This document shows positions 986 through 21,057 of a stretch of DNA of 34,568 bases, in pieces (the first letter of the stretch is position 1; every line of letters begins with the position of its first letter). Source of the DNA: an uncultured Bacteroidales bacterium (lineage in GTDB: Bacteria; Planctomycetota; Planctomycetia; Gemmatales; HRBIN36). The stretch lies in the NCBI GenBank assembly GCA_964410845.1, contig CAYPJB010000003.1, positions 1-34,568 on the forward strand, read 5' to 3'. The translations under genes were made by a program, and so were the position numbers. Below the pieces are notes generated by a model. The model searched no databases. It saw nothing but the letters and a program-made list of their open reading frames with translations, and was not told the origin of the DNA.

Positions 986-1402
986 TTAACATCGAGGATT
1001 TTCGCAATTGATCATCCAGGGGACACCGTACTGATCGATCAGCATTCCGAAACGGACTGCCCAGAATGTCTTTTCGAGAGGCATCACTATGGTCCCATTT
1101 TCGCCGAGTGACTTGAACACAGTCTCCGCTTCTTCCGGTGTTTCGACCTGTAGTGCTACCGAGCACCCTTTCACACCTTCATAGGGTTGGGCAGCATGCG
1201 CATCGGCTCCCATCAACAACTGATTTCCCACCATGAGTCGGGCATGCATGATCTTGCTGCTCAGTTCGGCAGGCACTTGTCCTTCCGAAGGCATGTCGCC
1301 ATAAGGCACCATGGCCACTAGCGTTCCACCAAGACATCGCTGATAGAATTTGAATGCTGCTTCACAGTTGCCATTAAAGACCACGTATGGATTCCACTGC
1401 AT
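986..1402 (-). CDS. VOC family protein, PhnB/YjdN-like
   Basis: 138-aa ORF. PYVVFNGNCEAAFKFYQRCLGG at the N-terminus and FWAVRFGMLIDQYGVPWMIN at the C-terminus match the PhnB-like (3-demethylubiquinone-9 methyltransferase-domain) VOC subgroup. Confidence 0.8.
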   Translation of the reverse strand: MQWNPYVVFNGNCEAAFKFYQRCLGGTLVAMVPYGDMPSEGQVPAELSSKIMHARLMVGNQLLMGADAHAAQPYEGVKGCSVALQVETPEEAETVFKSLGENGTIVMPLEKTFWAVRFGMLIDQYGVPWMINCENPRC

Positions 1403-1691: not shown

Positions 1692-2666
1692 GTGAGTCTC
1701 GTCATGCTTAAGAACTTACGTTCGGCTTTCACGTTGATTGAACTGCTTGTAGTCATTGCCATCATTGGTCTGATGATGAGCCTGTTGCTCCCTGCGATTC
1801 AGAAGGTGAGAGACGCAGCCAACCGGATGCTTAGCGCCAGCAACTTGCGGCAGATGGGCATTGCACTCCACAGCTATCATGGCGACTATGGCAGGTTTCC
1901 TTCCGGGTATGAGTCGGTCAGTGGGGTGGCTGGCAGCAACCCCGCCTCGCTCGATGGTCCTCCCGGGTGGAGTTGGGCTGCTCAATTGTTGCCTTACATC
2001 GAACAGGATAACCTGCACAAGAATCTGAACCTCAGTCTGCCCGCCTGGCACTCGGTGAATGCTGCTGCAACGAGTCGGTCGATCAAGCTCTTCATCAACC
2101 CCGCAGCACCGAACCAGGAGCCAAGCTTCATCGTCCGTGATGCCAGCAGGACGCCATTGGTAGAGTGGGGCCGGTCGCATTACGTCGCTAATGTCGGACA
2201 GGATGAAGCCTGGAGTTACCCGGCACTCAACGATACAGGTTGGAAACGCATCTCGACGGGACCTTTCTATCGCAACTCACGGGTACGCATTGCTGATGTT
2301 CTGGATGGAACCAACCATACGGTTTTCGTCGGCGAGCACACCACCATCTCCGACAAGACCTGGGTAGGCGTGCATCCTTATGCGCAAGTGTGCCCGACGG
2401 AGCCGAACCGTTATCCGTTCACTACCTGCGATGCAGCCCCGACACTGGTGCTGTGCCACAGTGGTCCTGCTCCATCGGAACCGGGCATTATCCATCCGCC
2501 GAGCTTTCCGACGTGCCATGTCTGCCAGATGTACACACCCTGGCAAGGCGGGCATGTGCTCTTCGGCGATGGCCACGTCTCCTTCATATCGACCTCGGTG
2601 AACCTCAACACCTGGGCAGCCCTCAGCACTATTCGTGGTGGGGAGGCGATTCTTGATCTCGACTAA
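1692..2666 (+). CDS. DUF1559 domain protein with prepilin-type N-terminal cleavage/methylation motif
   Basis: N-terminus AFTLIELLVVIAIIGLMMSLLLPAIQKVRDAANR is the type IV pilin-like class III signal typical of planctomycete DUF1559 proteins. The C-terminal H-rich end (GGHVLFGDGHVSFIS) is also characteristic. The start may be the ATG at 1704 rather than the GTG at 1692. Confidence 0.9.
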   Translation: MSLVMLKNLRSAFTLIELLVVIAIIGLMMSLLLPAIQKVRDAANRMLSASNLRQMGIALHSYHGDYGRFPSGYESVSGVAGSNPASLDGPPGWSWAAQLLPYIEQDNLHKNLNLSLPAWHSVNAAATSRSIKLFINPAAPNQEPSFIVRDASRTPLVEWGRSHYVANVGQDEAWSYPALNDTGWKRISTGPFYRNSRVRIADVLDGTNHTVFVGEHTTISDKTWVGVHPYAQVCPTEPNRYPFTTCDAAPTLVLCHSGPAPSEPGIIHPPSFPTCHVCQMYTPWQGGHVLFGDGHVSFISTSVNLNTWAALSTIRGGEAILDLD

Positions 2667-11727: not shown

Positions 11728-12474
11728 ATGCTGCGATGGCTTATCACCGGGACTTTTCTACTGAGCTTGTTGCCCATTCTGTCTGCACAGGAATCGAAAC
11801 CCGCTTCTTCTGCTAATAACAGTAACACTGGCGGCGCTGCACCCAACAAGGACGACATCACTGCTGTCAAACGAGTACTGACAGCTCGCAGTGAATACCA
11901 GTCATCACTGGAAGAACTGCGCGCCCAGTATCTGCGCACTGGTGATTTTGAGCGTGTCCGCTGGGTGGAAGAAGAACTGCTGGCCTATCACCGTATTTCC
12001 AAGCGGGCCTATCGGCTTGACCTCGATGTGCCACCACCCACGCTGCTGCCGAATCAGAACATTCCCGAAGCAAACGAGCTGTTCCGCCGGGCGCTGGCCT
12101 TCAAAAGCAAAGGCTGGGGATCTGAACTCGACGACAACTATCGCCGGGCAGAACTGCTGTTTCAGCAACTGATCAACCTGTATCCACAAAGCGACAAGCT
12201 TTCTGAAACGGCGTTCCACCTGGGTGACATCTACGAAAGCCGTGCTTTCAAACAATTACGCCGGGCTGCCACCTACTACGAACGCAGCTTCCAGTGGAAC
12301 CCCCAGACGACCAACGAAGCCCGCATCCGAGCAGCACGCCTGTATGACAAATCGCTCGCTGACAGCTCCAAGGCTGTTCAACTCTACCGGGATGAGATCA
12401 ACCACACCGCTGATCCTCGTCGGTTGGAAGAAGCCCGCAAGCGACTGTACGAACTGGGTTCGACGCCTCCGTAG
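11728..12474 (+). CDS. secreted TPR-like repeat protein
   Basis: Signal peptide MLRWLITGTFLLSLLPILSAQ from ATG 11728. The track ORF starts at GTG 11695, which would run through the hairpin. The helical repeat region (AELLFQQLINLYPQSDKLSETAFHLGDIY...ATYYERSFQWNP) is TPR/YbgF-like. Confidence 0.7.
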   Translation: MLRWLITGTFLLSLLPILSAQESKPASSANNSNTGGAAPNKDDITAVKRVLTARSEYQSSLEELRAQYLRTGDFERVRWVEEELLAYHRISKRAYRLDLDVPPPTLLPNQNIPEANELFRRALAFKSKGWGSELDDNYRRAELLFQQLINLYPQSDKLSETAFHLGDIYESRAFKQLRRAATYYERSFQWNPQTTNEARIRAARLYDKSLADSSKAVQLYRDEINHTADPRRLEEARKRLYELGSTPP

Positions 12475-12480
12475 GCTTGT

Positions 12481-12670
12481 GACGAGAGTCCTCTACAACT
12501 TACAGCCCGGAACGCGAGTGACGGGGAGAGCTCGCTGATGCTGGTGTTATCTGCATCGCCCCAAGACAATCACGCCATCACACATCATCTCATAAGTGCA
12601 TGTGTTCTCACCAACGCATGATCTCCCCGTCACTTGCGTTCCGGGCTGCATGTTGCACGGAACTCTCACC
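12481..12670. repeat. 190-bp palindromic MITE-like element with ~49-bp imperfect terminal inverted repeats, flanked by 35-bp diverged direct repeats (12445-12479 and 12682-12716)
   Basis: The arm 12481-12529 is the imperfect reverse complement of 12622-12670. The core CAGCCCGGAACGCGAGTGACGGGGAGA matches TCTCCCCGTCACTTGCGTTCCGGGCTG with 1 mismatch. The flanking direct repeats CTGTACGAACTGGGTTCGACGCCTCCGTAGGCTTG and CTGTACAAGTTGGGTTCGACACCTCCGCAATCTTG share 28/35 positions. Confidence 0.6.
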
Positions 12671-12729
12671 GTTGCACCCACCTGTACAAGTTGGGTTCGA
12701 CACCTCCGCAATCTTGCTATCATAACAGC

Positions 12730-16177: not shown

Positions 16178-17656
16178 CTAGGCTTTCGCCAACAGATCAT
16201 ACCCCTCTGCTGCAGTTACTTTCACCGAAACCAGATCGCCCGGATTCAGTTTTTTCGCTTTCACTTTCACAATCGGATCGATGTCGGGAGCATCAGCATA
16301 CGACCGCCCCAGCCACCAGCCCGGCATCTCCGGATCAGGGCTGTCGATGAGGACTTCCAGCGTCTGCCCCACCTGTCTCTTGCTCCAGGCGAAAGCAATC
16401 TTCTGCTGCGTCTTCATCAACCGATCACGTCGTTCGTTCTTGATCTCTTCGGGAAGATGCCCGGGCAGCTTCGCAGCAGGTGTTCCAGGCTCAAGGGAGT
16501 AAGTGAAGACCCCTGCCCGCTCGAAGTGCATTTCTTTCGTGAAATCGATCAGTTCCTGGAACTGTTCTTCAGTCTCGCCCGGAAAGCCCACAATGAAGGT
16601 GGTTCGCATCACCAGGTTGGGGATGGCTTGGCGCAGCTTGTTGACCAGTTCTACCGTCGACTTCTTCGTCACTTTCCGGCTCATGCGCTTGAGCATCGTA
16701 TCGTTGATGTGCTGCAAGGGCATATCGATGTAAGGCACGATCTTCTTCGCAGTGCTGAGGACATTCAGCAGCGAATCGGTCAGGTACATCGGATAGACGT
16801 AGAGTACCCGAATCCAGTCGATGCCTTTGACCTTGTCGAGTTCGCGAAGCAAATCATCGAGGCGAGGTTTGCCGTAGAGATCCATGCCGTAGTAGGTGGA
16901 ATCCTGCGCGACGATGTTGAGTTCACGGACGCCATCCGCTGCCAGCTCTTTCGCTTCGGAGATGACCATTTCCATGGGCTTGGTAGCATGTTTGCCCCGC
17001 ATGCCGGGAATGGCACAGAAGGTACAAAGCCTGTCGCAGCCTTCGCTGATCTTGAGGTACGCGAAGTGCCGGGGGGTGATGCGAAGTCGGGCATCATCAG
17101 GGAGTGCCCGCACCGGTGCCGGCTTGAAGAGCGATCGCTGTTCATGCAGCAGATCAGGCTTCGGAGCAGCCATCTTCAGACTGAATTTTCTGACTGGTTT
17201 GGTGCCAGTACTTTTTTTGCTGCCTGCAGGCTTCTTTGCTTCTGGGGGGGAAGCTTTACCAAGTAGTACCTTATCGCATACTTCGGTGATCTGTTCCCTG
17301 CCAAAAACGCCCACCAGGTGATCAATCCCAGGCACTTCCTGCAGCAACGTGTCTTTCTTCCGCTCTGCCAGGCACCCCGCCACGACGACAGCCTTGAGCT
17401 TACCCTGCTCTTTGAGGTCGATCATTTCCTGAATAACGCCCAGCGATTCCTGCCGGGCGGCTTCGATGAAGCCACAGGTATTGACAACAACGACATCCGC
17501 ACCATCGGGGTTGGGAACGAGGGCGTACCCGTCGACGGTCAAATGGCCGAGCATGCGTTCAGAATCGACCAGATTCTTGGCGCAGCCGAGGGTGACGAAA
17601 GCAAGCGTGCCCTTTACGGGCTCAGGTTTTGGCATAGTCAGTGAATCGTTCAGCAA
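16178..17656 (-). CDS. rimO: ribosomal protein S12 methylthiotransferase RimO
   Basis: MTTase N-domain (FVTLGCAKNLVDSE), radical-SAM cluster motif (YLKISEGCDRLCTFCAIP) preceded by ITPRH as in RimO, and a C-terminal TRAM domain. The track start is TTG 17656; the ATG at 17635 is an equally plausible start. Confidence 0.9.
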   Translation of the reverse strand: MLNDSLTMPKPEPVKGTLAFVTLGCAKNLVDSERMLGHLTVDGYALVPNPDGADVVVVNTCGFIEAARQESLGVIQEMIDLKEQGKLKAVVVAGCLAERKKDTLLQEVPGIDHLVGVFGREQITEVCDKVLLGKASPPEAKKPAGSKKSTGTKPVRKFSLKMAAPKPDLLHEQRSLFKPAPVRALPDDARLRITPRHFAYLKISEGCDRLCTFCAIPGMRGKHATKPMEMVISEAKELAADGVRELNIVAQDSTYYGMDLYGKPRLDDLLRELDKVKGIDWIRVLYVYPMYLTDSLLNVLSTAKKIVPYIDMPLQHINDTMLKRMSRKVTKKSTVELVNKLRQAIPNLVMRTTFIVGFPGETEEQFQELIDFTKEMHFERAGVFTYSLEPGTPAAKLPGHLPEEIKNERRDRLMKTQQKIAFAWSKRQVGQTLEVLIDSPDPEMPGWWLGRSYADAPDIDPIVKVKAKKLNPGDLVSVKVTAAEGYDLLAKA

Positions 17657-17763
17657 AGTTGAGGAGTATGATATGAGTTGTTGAAGTCCCGGCTGAGTGT
17701 GAACTCTCGCTTTCGTGGGAAGTCATTCCAGCCAGGGTGCCGGGAGCATTTCATGAAAAGTCG

Positions 17764-17964
17764 TGCCGGTGCCCGGAACGTGCATGAGAGTTCTCGTGCC
17801 ATGGAAGCGACTGTATTCAGTCTCCTCCGTGCTGGGCAACGAACAATTCGGTTTCTTCATAAAACCTTGGGGGACTCGAAGTGACTGTACATCACAACTC
17901 GAAAAAGAAGGAGTACCTTCACTTCCGTGGCACGGCATTCTCAGTAACCTACAGAGCACCCGGC
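17764..17964 (+). repeat. copy A of a ~180-200 nt hairpin-forming repeat (left flank of low-GC cassette)
   Basis: Aligns with 19558-19737. Shared blocks are GGTGCCCGGAAC, CATGAGAGTT, CGTGCCA, GTCTCCTCCGTGCTGG, AAGGAGTACCTTCACTT, CGTGGCACG and CATTCTCAG. The outer arms 17783-17820 and 17908-17944 are complementary. Confidence 0.65.
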
Positions 17965-18042
17965 GAGAGCGCATCTTCCATGATGACTTCTCGCTCGCCC
18001 CCCCCTGCGTTACTGGAATGATCCGAGCTCTTGGCCAGTTCA

Positions 18043-18471
18043 TTAAGGACTACCATTATTATTGAGAAAGAAATAATCACCATAGCGCAAGGAAATCAGA
18101 CCTACTTCTCTCGTATTAAACACAATACAAATACACTCCTTTATGTCAATCTTCTTATTTTTATCAATAAATATATTGTATACCTCAGGTATTTTATGTA
18201 AGGTAGTCAGCTGAAGTCGCCAGATTCTGGCGGGAGTACCTTCGACAGTTTTGGGAAATTCAATTTTTCTAATGACTTTATATGCACCTAATAGTGACAT
18301 AGATTTCAAATCGAAGGCAACTAAAGTTTGCCTTCCAGGTGGCACGTAGACCAACATTTTTGCTTGATGATGCTGAAATACAATTGGCACACTATAATCG
18401 TCTGGATCATATTGACGATCACTGTGACAGTAGAGCAAAACAATAACCCAGAATATGCTCGAAGGCATCAT
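18043..18471 (-). CDS. hypothetical small protein with N-terminal hydrophobic segment
   Basis: 142-aa ORF. Its start overlaps the stop of the upstream ORF (ATGA at 18468-18471). N-terminal SSIFWVIVLLYC is signal- or anchor-like. Very AT-rich. I recognise no family. Confidence 0.5.
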   Translation of the reverse strand: MMPSSIFWVIVLLYCHSDRQYDPDDYSVPIVFQHHQAKMLVYVPPGRQTLVAFDLKSMSLLGAYKVIRKIEFPKTVEGTPARIWRLQLTTLHKIPEVYNIFIDKNKKIDIKECICIVFNTREVGLISLRYGDYFFLNNNGSP

Positions 18472-19364
18472 TTGACTACTTCTTTATTAGACCGGATAAG
18501 GCATCGTGACATCGCTGCAGTACGAACGATTCTCCACAATCCGAATCCTACAGATGCCATAATCAGGAATACTTTACTAGACAGTTCTGGAACCGCAGTG
18601 ACAGTGAGCTGCGATTCTATTGTCATTCCCAAACCAATATCACCATTTCCTTGCGCTCCAACTAAGTCAAGTGTAAATCCCCAAAGCACATTACTACTCG
18701 AGTATTGAAGGTTGTTTCCTGTTTGAGAAGTTCCACCTTTTGCTGCAAACACGTAACCATGCCAAAATATTTGATATGGCTTGGCAACAGTTCGTGCTGC
18801 ATCTTCAAATCGCATAGATCCATTTGGCGCAAAAGGATAGAAAGGAAGCTCTGTGCCATCTAAAAACCAATATGAGCCATCAACCGGATCTGTATAGGCC
18901 CTTGCACCAACTCCCTGCGCACTCTCTAGACTATTGGTATGGACGACTTGTAATAATCTAAATTCCTCTTGCGATGGAGATTGCCAGGGTTGATAGGAAA
19001 GGTGGATGTTTGCGCCGCCTGCTGACATCAATGCAATGGGCGTGTACTGCTCAAGTGTGAATTGTCCATCGGCGGTAAAGGAGCTGATGGTCCAGTTATG
19101 CGCGGCATCGATGTTGCTTTTACCTAGGACAGCAGACATGTTACCTGGAAAAGCAGTCATGCCATCCGACAGAATTAGGTTTGTCACAACAACCTTTCCA
19201 TCTGGTCGAACTGGGCCAATTGCGTTTCCAGAGCCACCTGGCGGAAATTCTCCAGTTGGTTTTTGTAACCATCCAGATTGCGGTGGAAGAACTTGAGCGA
19301 CAAGAGCAGTTGGCAAAAAAAACAAAAGGAAAACTGAATACAACAATGAGTAGTAAGGCATCAC
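18468..19364 (-). CDS. secreted protein with PEP-CTERM-like C-terminal sorting signal
   Basis: Signal peptide (LLYSVFLLFFLPTALVAQ). The C-terminus VPELSSKVFLIMASVGFGLWRIVR has a PE(P/L) motif, a TM helix and a basic cluster, as in PEP-CTERM/exosortase substrates. A strong SD (GGAGGAG) lies 5 nt upstream of the ATG. Confidence 0.6.
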   Translation of the reverse strand: MMPYYSLLYSVFLLFFLPTALVAQVLPPQSGWLQKPTGEFPPGGSGNAIGPVRPDGKVVVTNLILSDGMTAFPGNMSAVLGKSNIDAAHNWTISSFTADGQFTLEQYTPIALMSAGGANIHLSYQPWQSPSQEEFRLLQVVHTNSLESAQGVGARAYTDPVDGSYWFLDGTELPFYPFAPNGSMRFEDAARTVAKPYQIFWHGYVFAAKGGTSQTGNNLQYSSSNVLWGFTLDLVGAQGNGDIGLGMTIESQLTVTAVPELSSKVFLIMASVGFGLWRIVRTAAMSRCLIRSNKEVVK

Positions 19365-19557
19365 ATCTCCTCCATTGTGTCATTTCTAATAATACGATAT
19401 TGTCTTTCTTGACTTTGTCACTGCTTAGAATAGCTGTGTGCCCAAGGTGACAGTTTGGAAACAGTGAGGAGAATACCGCAAAACTGCAAATGCCAATGGC
19501 ACTCTAGCTTTCATTTTAACGGCTCATTTCTCCCCTTTCTCACGTTGCATTGATAAA

Positions 19558-19737
19558 TGCCCGGTGCCCGGAACAATCATGAGAGTTAGCGTGCCACGGA
19601 GGTGACAGTACTCGGTCTCCTCCGTGCTGGACAGTCGACCAATTCGATTTCTTCACGGCAGCATCCTAGCACGGAAGAGAAGGAGTACCTTCACTTGCGT
19701 GGCACGTCATTCTCAGGATCCTACAAAGTACTCGGCC
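19558..19737 (+). repeat. copy B of the hairpin-forming repeat (right flank of low-GC cassette)
   Basis: See copy A. In this copy 19578-19630 pairs with 19665-19717 over about 50 positions with few mismatches and bulges, around a ~35-nt loop. Confidence 0.65.
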
Positions 19738-19830
19738 AAAGTATGACACTCGTTGCACATCATCTAGGCAGGATTCCCGTCATAAGATAGTATTTGTCTA
19801 ACGGTTGCATCGGCCTCTGGGTATAGATGT

Positions 19831-21057
19831 ATGAGTGACACGGCTACGAACGCTACCCCCTCTCTCCAGGAACGCGTTCAATCACTGCGATTGAACAAGG
19901 ATATACGAGTACCTCCCCGGCGGGGTGGCAAACTCTTCTGGTTGATCATCCTGGGCGTCTTTGTCGGTGGAGGGGCCTGGTTGTGGCTCACCTATGGTGA
20001 ATCCCTCCGCAAGGCACTCAGTACGTCCACTTCGCCCATGGCTGTGGCGACATCGACCAAGCCCGTGGAATCCGAGAAGATCGCCAGCAACATTGCATTG
20101 GAAGCAGGTGGCTATATCGTGCCATTCCAGAAAGTACAAGTCAGCCCCAAAGTGGGTGGGCAGGTGAAGGAACTCTTCATCGAAGAAGGCACTTATGTAA
20201 AGGCAGGTGCCGTGCTGGCCAAGCTCGAAGTGGAAGAATACCTCTTTGAGTTCCGCCGGGCTACTGCCGTTGCTCAACTCGCCAAGGCCAAGCTTGACGA
20301 AGCCGAGAAGGGCAACCGGGATGAAGAAAAACTGCAAGCCAATGCTGCTGAACAGGAAGCATTCGAATCCCTGAAACTGGCCAAGGACGAACTCACCAAA
20401 CTGACAGCTTCCGGTAACGCCATCACGTTAGATGAATTGGATAAAGCCAAGAGCCGCGTCCGCATCAGTGAACAGAAGCTCGAACAACAGCGGGCAATCA
20501 ATGCCATGATGAAGAAGGGACAGCGGGATGAACGCAAATCCGCTGCCAAGGCTGAGTACGATCAGGCTTGTGCCGATCGGGATAAAGCGCAATGGCGGCT
20601 GGATAATTGCAGCGTTGTAGCTCCTATCAACGGTGTTATTCTCGAAAAGAAAACAGAACTGGGCAACACGGTTCGCCCTGAAGCCTTTTCCAACGGCCTC
20701 TCTGCTAACTTGTGCGATATGGCTGATCTCAAGAACCTCGAAGTCGAAGTGGACATCAGCGAACGTGATATCCGGCAAATCAAACGAGGTCAACTCTGCA
20801 ACATTAGCACCGAAGCCTTCAAGGACAAGAAGTACACTGGACAGGTTGCTCGTATCATGCCTGTCGCCAGTCGCAGCAAGGCCAGCGTCACGGTGCGGGT
20901 CAAAATCAATGTCCCTGACGATGAGAAAGATCTGCGTCCTGAAATGCGTGCCCGGGTACAGTTCTTGAAGAACCCCAGTGAAACACCTGCACCAGCAACG
21001 AATACCCCTGTAGCTGCAACGCCAACAACCAGCACTGACATCTCTGTCAAGAAATAG
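19831..21057 (+). CDS. HlyD/MacA-type periplasmic adaptor (membrane fusion protein)
   Basis: N-terminal TM anchor, a lipoyl/barrel segment (PKVGGQVKELFIEEGTYVKAGAVLAKL), a long coiled-coil hairpin, and VVAPINGVILEK after the coiled coil. Confidence 0.85.
   Translation: MSDTATNATPSLQERVQSLRLNKDIRVPPRRGGKLFWLIILGVFVGGGAWLWLTYGESLRKALSTSTSPMAVATSTKPVESEKIASNIALEAGGYIVPFQKVQVSPKVGGQVKELFIEEGTYVKAGAVLAKLEVEEYLFEFRRATAVAQLAKAKLDEAEKGNRDEEKLQANAAEQEAFESLKLAKDELTKLTASGNAITLDELDKAKSRVRISEQKLEQQRAINAMMKKGQRDERKSAAKAEYDQACADRDKAQWRLDNCSVVAPINGVILEKKTELGNTVRPEAFSNGLSANLCDMADLKNLEVEVDISERDIRQIKRGQLCNISTEAFKDKKYTGQVARIMPVASRSKASVTVRVKINVPDDEKDLRPEMRARVQFLKNPSETPAPATNTPVAATPTTSTDISVKK

Follow-up and report, generated by a model that had tools for sequence, protein, structure and literature searches.

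REPINs, doublets of repetitive extragenic palindromic (REP) sequences, were defined in Pseudomonas fluorescens SBW25 (Bertels & Rainey 2011, PMC3116915). REP dimers, heterodimers, REPtrons and 'TIRtrons' with long terminal inverted repeats (TIRs) have also been described, as has the planctomycete R. baltica with its 'plethora' of tyrosine transposases and matching flanking repeats (Di Nocera et al. 2013, PMC3733652), and a classification covers tyrosine transposases associated with REPs (RAYTs) and the wider TnpA-Y1 enzymes (Quentin et al. 2018, PMC6006769). Here we analyze a long hairpin of ~140 nt in an uncultured member of the Gemmatales (Planctomycetota), present as copies A and B in a 34,568-nucleotide stretch of DNA (GenBank assembly GCA_964410845.1, contig CAYPJB010000003.1, positions 1 to 34,568; hereafter the window). 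An earlier note made from the letters of this stretch had offered three explanations for the hairpin: a miniature inverted-repeat transposable element (MITE) of the ERIC/Correia type, a 6S-like or other structured RNA, or an RNase III substrate. Its best class is none of these three but a REP doublet, similar to REPINs and to bacterial interspersed mosaic elements (BIMEs). In all likelihood, the hairpin consists of two inverted extragenic units of ~84 nt, members of a family that belongs to a RAYT.

The long hairpin of copy B is real and far beyond chance. A repeat search of the window returned 19590-19628 and 19668-19706 as inverted arms of 39 nt with 82% complementarity, and RNAfold assigned positions 19555-19745 a free energy of -84.3 kcal/mol, compared with -53.8 ± 4.1 kcal/mol for dinucleotide shuffles (z = -7.5; 0 of 200 shuffles as stable). 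The minus strand folds about equally well (z = -6.3). By hand folding, roughly 40 of about 50 positions had been said to pair between 19578-19630 and 19665-19717; the strings and coordinates of these arms are correct, and the minimum free energy structure contains slightly more pairs than proposed (44, including 3 G-U). Copies A and B are direct repeats with 81-84% identity in gapless blocks and ~72% overall. In copy A (17760-17975) the outer stem alone is retained (z = -3.7), as had been claimed, but not through compensation (see below). We likewise agree that the element is non-coding: open reading frames (ORFs) called across it have no Pfam match, and indels separate A from B.

What had gone unreported is that each arm of the long hairpin is a self-contained palindrome, with local hairpins at 19595-19626 and 19670-19701 in copy B and at 17800-17831 and 17898-17929 in copy A. 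Each of these hairpins sits within one unit of an 84-nt family, for which we built a covariance model, R1. Doublet B (19555-19740) comprises a plus-strand unit followed by a minus-strand unit. The left unit, 19555-19641, matches model positions 1-84 (79.9 bits, E = 8e-22) and is complete, with outer arm, GTGC tag, hairpin and tail; its REP-type hairpin (CACGGAGGTGAC/GTCTCCTCCGTG, plus strand) has a free energy of -18.7 kcal/mol alone and lies within the family's covarying helix. A spacer at 19642-19655 separates this match from the inverted right unit, 19656-19740 (70.3 bits, E = 5e-19; local hairpin -15.7 kcal/mol). Doublet A (17760-17968) has the same layout, with a left unit on the plus strand at 17760-17846 (62.6 bits, E = 8e-17), a 37-nt spacer at 17847-17883, and an inverted, partly decayed right unit at 17884-17968 (65.2 bits, E = 1e-17) whose local hairpin is weakened.

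The long stem owes its complementarity to the homology of the two units, of which the right one is inverted. If the doublet is single-stranded, the long hairpin is its preferred fold, though not itself the conserved feature: for copy B, we calculated -72.4 kcal/mol for the long hairpin and -41.3 kcal/mol for the two local hairpins with RNA parameters, and -35.9 and -26.0 kcal/mol, respectively, with DNA parameters. The nearest relative of the left unit of A in the genome is the left unit of B (72% identity), and that of the right unit of A is the right unit of B (75%), while opposite arms within either doublet are only 56-63% identical. This left-to-left and right-to-right likeness suggests that the doublet was copied as a whole. 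The two copies are old, given their 72-75% identity, their indels and an additional arm-only fragment at A. This fragment, a partial unit on the plus strand at 17722-17768 (GCCAGGGTGCCGGGAGCATTTCATGAAAAGTCGTGCC), was read by eye against the unit consensus, and R1 gives no separate match there. It consists of an outer arm and GTGC tag fused to the following complete unit at that unit's arm, with the junction exactly at the tag, the foot of the missing hairpin. This position might be the one at which a RAYT-type cut is expected.

From 14 units of the genome in which the window lies, we derived a consensus over 84 columns, GCCAGGTGCCCGG.AGATT.ATGAGAATG.CGTGCCACGGA.GTGATGTACTC.TCTCCTCCGTGCTGG..GTGCAA. 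The unit begins with an outer arm (GCCrGGTGCCCGGrAG-ATTG-ATGAGA), followed by a tetranucleotide tag (GTGC), an imperfect palindrome (CACGGAnGTGA-(T)G-TACT-C(A)-TCnCnTCCGTG) and a tail (CTGGAcGTGCAAtcg). The palindrome folds into a hairpin with a 13-14-bp stem, a conserved T·T mismatch and a TACT loop, which we modeled as 11 pairs plus 2-3 apical pairs. Of 81 units, 65 retain the mismatch. The unpaired 5′ tetranucleotide at the stem foot is GTGC in 69 units of 83, and a further 7 have GTGG; REPs tagged GTGG are mentioned in PMC6006769. Single units and hairpin-only units also occur in the family.

Two side observations concern this anatomy. The consensus unit carries GTGC three times, once within the arm (GGTGCCCGG), once at the foot of the hairpin (CGTGCCACGG) and once within the tail (ACGTGCAA); examples in the window are 19565-19568 and 19591-19594, and the tails of the window's own copies are degenerate. 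By analogy, this threefold occurrence might reflect a guide and cleavage-site logic as in IS608. In addition, a complete genome of the same genus (G003) contains two 'hairpin-less' units, L107:2218-2271 and L107:910-963, in which arm and tail are intact and the tail follows the GTGC tag, with exactly the intervening palindrome missing. These may be footprints of hairpin excision.

The earlier note had proposed collecting homologs and examining them for covariation, along with an Rfam scan and a look at target-site duplications, and these were the appropriate tests. For covariation, the outcome differs between the two structures: the local hairpin covaries, and the long helix does not. Across 83 distinct units from five genomes, 88.8% of cells in the local hairpin are paired, and both sides have changed in 8 of the 11 pairs (128 cells). 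The covariation score is 0.403, compared with 0.107 after shuffling (reached in 0 of 500 shuffles), and falls to ≤0.08 when the partner is slid by 1-3 columns. An alignment of 14 units made with MAFFT, blind to the structure, gives the same picture. The 2-3 apical pairs also covary around the constant TACT loop (TG…CA, GG…CC, CG…CG). Among mismatches in the local stem, 14 are G·T and 6 are A·C.

For the long helix, we used 31 doublets from the same genomes, each defined as a plus-strand unit followed by a minus-strand unit within 200 nt. Hairpin columns show 80% long-range complementarity and arm columns 62%, with local pairing at 88-89% in these doublets. The helix between units shows no covariation in these 31 doublets, as complementarity is 0.67 within a doublet and 0.70 between doublets. 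Comparison of A and B leads to the same conclusion. The outer stem had been said to be maintained despite substitutions; at long-range positions that differ in either arm, however, we counted 1 compensatory change and 7 switches between Watson-Crick and G-U pairs, compared with 14 changes by which a pair of B is lost in A and 6 in the opposite direction. What keeps the long stem in place is mainly that the family consensus stands unaltered at 36 paired positions. Selection on the long stem was considered as an explanation and rejected on the doublet complementarity and this substitution count. Covariation speaks for the short unit hairpin in place of the ~50-bp helix between arms that a 6S-like RNA or RNase III substrate would need. 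The conserved object is the REP-type hairpin within the unit, with its fixed tag and mismatch, which are hallmarks of a DNA hairpin recognized by protein.

We searched for further members of the family in the window's own assembly (4.78 Mb in 690 contigs, 95% complete) and in related genomes. With copy B as query, the assembly gave additional partial matches on many contigs, and it was these that revealed the ~84-nt unit, instead of the 140-nt hairpin, as what is repeated. R1 alone finds ~26-29 units at E ≤ 0.01 in this assembly, and nhmmer and the covariance model together give about 22-29; these counts are lower bounds because several units lie at contig ends. The four congeners carry 19, 38, 46 and 54 units, so that all five genomes of the genus are positive. 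Among 36 further genomes of the same family or order, R1 matches nothing in 34, and the other two yield 2 matches and 1 match, respectively. Similarly, the exact core pattern occurs in 2 records among 185,579 species genomes, both of them metagenome-assembled genomes labeled 'Gemmatales bacterium' that correspond to congeners G003 and G004. The unit family is essentially restricted to one lineage, a single uncultured genus of Gemmatales. A palindromic element of ~190 bp elsewhere in the window (12445-12716, at the end of a tetratricopeptide repeat (TPR) gene) was considered as a member and rejected (R1 E = 1.3, no GTGCCACGG hairpin).

The units are extragenic, multi-copy and dispersed, which bears out the earlier note in describing a dispersed repeat of mobile-element type, now resolved as an 84-nt unit at 19-54 copies per genome in five genomes. 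Copies are only 55-80% identical to one another and occupy unrelated contexts in both orientations. Across units, the longest frame free of stops is 103 codons at the median, compared with 443 at random positions, and a frame of ≥200 codons spans only 1 of 25 units, compared with 90% of random positions. In all five genomes, the plus/minus doublet is the commonest arrangement of units (31 doublets, spacers of ~0-190 nt). Doublets are 140-260 nt long and have the termini GCCrGGTGCCCGG…CCGGGCACCyGGC. At the ends of 24 doublets, we found no consistent target-site duplication (TSD), only chance words of 3-4 nt at variable offsets. This absence argues against a MITE of DDE type and fits the chemistry of a Y1 HUH enzyme. 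Tandem arrays of doublets or units with a period of 177-189 nt are also found in a congener (L135, G001:C2:2002588-2003111; and G001:C2:1100958-1101573).

A gene for such an enzyme lies between two units of this family. The window's genome contains ten Pfam Y1_Tnp matches, one of which, G000:C318:1275-1883 on the minus strand, codes for a protein of 191 aa that carries an HUH motif (PEHVHLL) and a Y motif (YIHHNPVKRGL). The gene is bracketed by units at 1176-1260 (plus) and 1917-2000 (minus), in the geometry of a doublet in which the gene replaces the spacer. The protein scores 100.9 bits against NCBIfam NF047646, 'REP-associated tyrosine transposase' (an equivalog model with a cut-off of 80), and together with three paralogs on contigs C275, C201 and C128 spans 82-101 bits. 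All four fail the IS200 model NF033573, reaching ≤29 bits against a cut-off of 55. The top match of the C318 protein in the PDB is E. coli TnpA-REP (4er8; phmmer E = 1e-7), with both catalytic motifs aligned, and no extra Pfam or NCBIfam domain was detected in its 191 aa. Its motifs (E/D-H-V/A-H, WQ, YIH-x-NP) are intermediate between subclasses 2.6 and 2.7 of Quentin et al., and we therefore assign it to neither.

The association between gene and unit recurs in a second species, as G003 encodes a RAYT homolog of 60% identity in the same unit(+)-gene-unit(-) layout as at C318. It also extends to the paralogs: each of the four RAYT genes is flanked by its own stem variant (GTGCCACGG…, GTGGCAGGGTCG…, GTGGCACTG… and GTGCCACAGG…), and all four flanking repeats share a GTACTC-type loop and a CCGGGTGCCCGG arm. 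More broadly, nearly all of 80 RAYT homologs across Planctomycetota (40-57% identity) are bracketed by inverted, lineage-specific palindromes 50-150 nt from the gene.

Several further loci touch on these enzymes. A second doublet family, with stem GTGGCAGGGTCG…CGACCCTGC, occurs at G000:C148:5810-5956 and at G000:C128:228-316 and 1015-1104, and also forms long hairpins; it is cognate to the RAYT paralog on C128 and is present in congeners (L105, L107, L120, L122, L141). Two further Y1 proteins, encoded at G000:C76:3395-3916 and G000:C189:2935-3690 (L019, L020), carry NHVHVV and Y-T-L-x-(E/Q)-Q motifs and fit the rare 'class 3' TnpA-Y1, which is found mainly in Planctomycetes (Quentin et al. 2018, PMC6006769). 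Three true IS200-like genes lie elsewhere in the genome, on contigs C175, C24 and C296.

By homology to E. coli TnpA-REP and to IS200/IS608 TnpA, the C318 RAYT would recognize, on single-stranded DNA (for instance at the replication fork), both the unit folded into its hairpin and the 5′ tag. It would then cleave and rejoin the DNA without target duplications, and through this cleavage and rejoining units and doublets would be excised, copied or lost. The long hairpin itself is the geometric outcome of placing two homologous units head to head. An indirect hint of mobility is that three congeners lack the element in the spacer between rimO and hlyD, where the window has it.

A number of features weigh against assigning this family to the REP class. 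The unit, at 84 nt, is 2-4 times the canonical REP length, and nothing like its conserved outer arm has been described for classical REPs. The unit carries GTGC or GTGG as its 5′ tag instead of GTAG, and copies number in the tens, not hundreds. Judging from the divergence among copies, the population looks old, and its present-day mobility is presumptive. There are four RAYT paralogs here, where REPIN-associated RAYTs are typically single-copy. Finally, the species of the genus are too diverged (72-77% identity in coding DNA) to give base-exact insertion boundaries. We nevertheless regard the system as an ordinary, well-resolved addition to the REP/REPIN class, not a dedicated RNA gene. Somewhat unusual are the 84-nt unit with its conserved outer arm, the GTGC/GTGG tag, the T·T mismatch, and the four RAYTs whose matched stems share loop and arm.

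The local setting of the two doublets raises the separate matter of how they came to lie side by side. Between them is a low-GC cassette of two ORFs (142 and 298 aa) at 18043-19364 on the minus strand, within a block of ~1.5 kb with a GC content of 38-46%, compared with about 55% outside. The cassette ORFs have no Pfam match, and we found no homologs by tblastn in the window's genome or by protein search in 15 genomes of the family (for the 298-aa ORF, none in the 14 others). Copy A has the start of a MiaB/RimO-type radical-SAM gene (16178-17656, minus strand) on one side and the cassette's 3′ end on the other; copy B lies between the start of the cassette and an HlyD/ABC/FtsX operon, flanked by two divergent gene starts. 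In congeners G001-G003, the spacer between rimO and hlyD is only 210-310 nt and contains neither A, cassette, B nor any unit, so that the block of A, cassette and B (2.07 kb) is missing from three congeners; in G004, a different gene follows rimO. Short intergenic motifs on either side of the block are kept in three congeners, at 17667-17680 (GAGTATGATATGGG, at the start of rimO) and 19756-19790 (CACATCATCTAGGCAG.ATTC..GTCATAAGATA, upstream of hlyD). These are probably promoter or operator sequences of the flanking operons.

This arrangement raises the possibility that A and B are attL/attR-like recombination products, left when the cassette integrated into a single pre-existing doublet or between two, with the duplication as a scar of acquisition instead of repeat transposition. 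The two copies are in direct orientation, bracket a cassette unique to this genome and are mutually nearest relatives arm by arm, and the whole block is missing from three congeners. A recent duplication would have left near-identical copies, however, whereas A and B share only 72-75% identity, indels separate them and A has a partial arm in addition, and a Pfam scan revealed no integrase or recombinase in or beside the cassette. Furthermore, the tandem arrays of congeners carry no cargo, and neighboring doublets such as A and B can therefore arise without cargo between them; insertion of the cassette between tandem doublets is equally simple. We consider an attL/attR-like origin unlikely, and it would not dispute the identity of the element itself.

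We judge it decidedly unlikely that the doublet is, or was, co-opted as a functional structured RNA, whether as an RNase III substrate, as an element stabilizing or terminating the 3′ end of the cassette transcript, or as a 5′ untranslated region (5′-UTR) regulator of rimO or of the hlyD-ABC operon. The positions of the copies would suit such roles, with A between the 3′ end of the cassette and the start of rimO, and B between two divergent gene starts. As RNA, the long hairpin is much more stable than the two local hairpins, both strands fold well, and such roles are known for transcribed REPs of enterobacteria (see the review PMC3733652). The excess of G·T over A·C mismatches is a weak hint that one strand matters. 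Conversely, the long helix lacks covariation both among doublets and between A and B, copies are found in unrelated contexts and both orientations, and three congeners do without any element in the rimO-hlyD spacer. The conserved tag, the T·T mismatch and the association with a RAYT gene are features of a protein-recognized DNA hairpin.

A known RNA, 6S-like or other, also finds no support in Rfam: a scan of 17000-20500 with permissive E-values gave no family at threshold, its only hit being MIR2950 with 29.2 bits (gathering score 76). We rejected this match to a plant microRNA (miRNA) as spurious, a chance matching of the long hairpin below the gathering score. One site does resemble a terminator, and we note it as a point in favor of a transcript-level role: on the minus strand at 17920-17907, the local hairpin of the right unit of A (GAAGGTACTCCTTC) is followed by TTTTTC, downstream of the last ORF of the cassette. 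As read from the sequence, a regulatory side-effect of units on their neighbors at sites like this one is possible.

It is very unlikely, in our estimation, that the two doublets form a composite 'REPIN-cargo-REPIN', and that the cassette entered the rimO-hlyD spacer in a RAYT-dependent or REPIN-directed event for which they were the ends or the target. The missing block in three congeners, the unique cassette and the arm-by-arm kinship of A and B are compatible with such an event, and if it took place, REP doublets could bracket and move or capture cargo. Scarcely credible is a conventional MITE of the ERIC/Correia type, that is, a deletion derivative of an insertion sequence (IS) with a DDE transposase, moved through its TIRs and leaving TSDs: doublets are dispersed, extragenic, 140-260 nt long and end in good TIRs, but 24 of them show no consistent TSD, the gene between inverted units in two species is a REP-associated Y1 HUH RAYT and not a DDE enzyme, single and hairpin-only units exist, and covariation is carried by the internal hairpin and not by the termini.

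With its identification as a REP doublet, an apparently puzzling hairpin becomes part of a class of elements that can be annotated in an uncultured genus of Gemmatales. The covariance model and consensus can be used to mask or annotate units, and the presence of units at contig ends helps to explain the fragmented assembly. The family provides a clean REP-RAYT system outside the Proteobacteria, with an unusually long three-part unit and a conserved T·T mismatch, and its four RAYT paralogs, with matched stems and a common loop and arm, constitute a natural specificity series for the reading of hairpins by RAYTs. There is also a caution for RNA prediction: inverted homologous repeats can produce the signal of a long hairpin whose copies differ by wobbles, with no need for selection on an RNA structure.

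Compared with known systems, the family is probably related in mechanism to IS200/IS605 elements and their miniature derivatives, palindrome-associated transposable elements (PATEs), in which a Y1 HUH enzyme acts on single-stranded DNA, recognizes sub-terminal hairpins and leaves no TSDs. The ends of IS200/IS605 elements are not inverted repeats of each other, however, whereas the flanking units in Gemmatales are inverted and the enzyme fails the IS200 model. There is also a likeness to TIRtrons, TIRYTs and composite repeats of 'REP + unrelated stem-loop' type (PMC3733652, PMC6006769). These share long inverted repeats (>50 nt) around a RAYT-like gene and form moderately abundant families that occur as dimers or clusters, and R. 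baltica is rich in such sets. In contrast to them, the long repeat in Gemmatales holds a covarying REP-type hairpin, and its protein passes the REP_Tyr_transpos equivalog model. Nor does the Gemmatales RAYT have the C-terminal helix-turn-helix (HTH) or DnaA-like domain typical of subclass 2.1 TIRYTs.

Similarity to the REP/BIME and TnpA-REP system of E. coli (4er8) extends to the alignment of the RAYT over its HUH and YxxxNP motifs, and to the unpaired 5′ tetranucleotide and stem irregularity of the repeat. Likewise, doublets in congeners pair a GGA(A/G/T)GTGA-type with a GGAAATG-type stem, and E. coli REP dimers are often heterodimers of two stem variants. The proteins, however, have low identity, and loop, tag and stem sequences are unrelated. 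With respect to the REPINs of SBW25, the Gemmatales family differs in its unit of 84 nt with a conserved outer arm of ~40 nt and a tail, in its GTGC/GTGG tag in place of GTAG, in copies that number tens and not hundreds and are much more diverged, and in its host phylum, Planctomycetota; its excision is a prediction by homology. Like those REPINs, it consists of two inverted imperfect palindromes that are separated by a short spacer and form a long hairpin, and it is extragenic, dispersed, lineage-restricted and free of TSDs. Finally, in both systems a Y1 HUH RAYT gene is flanked by an inverted repeat, and several RAYT paralogs have repeat variants of their own.

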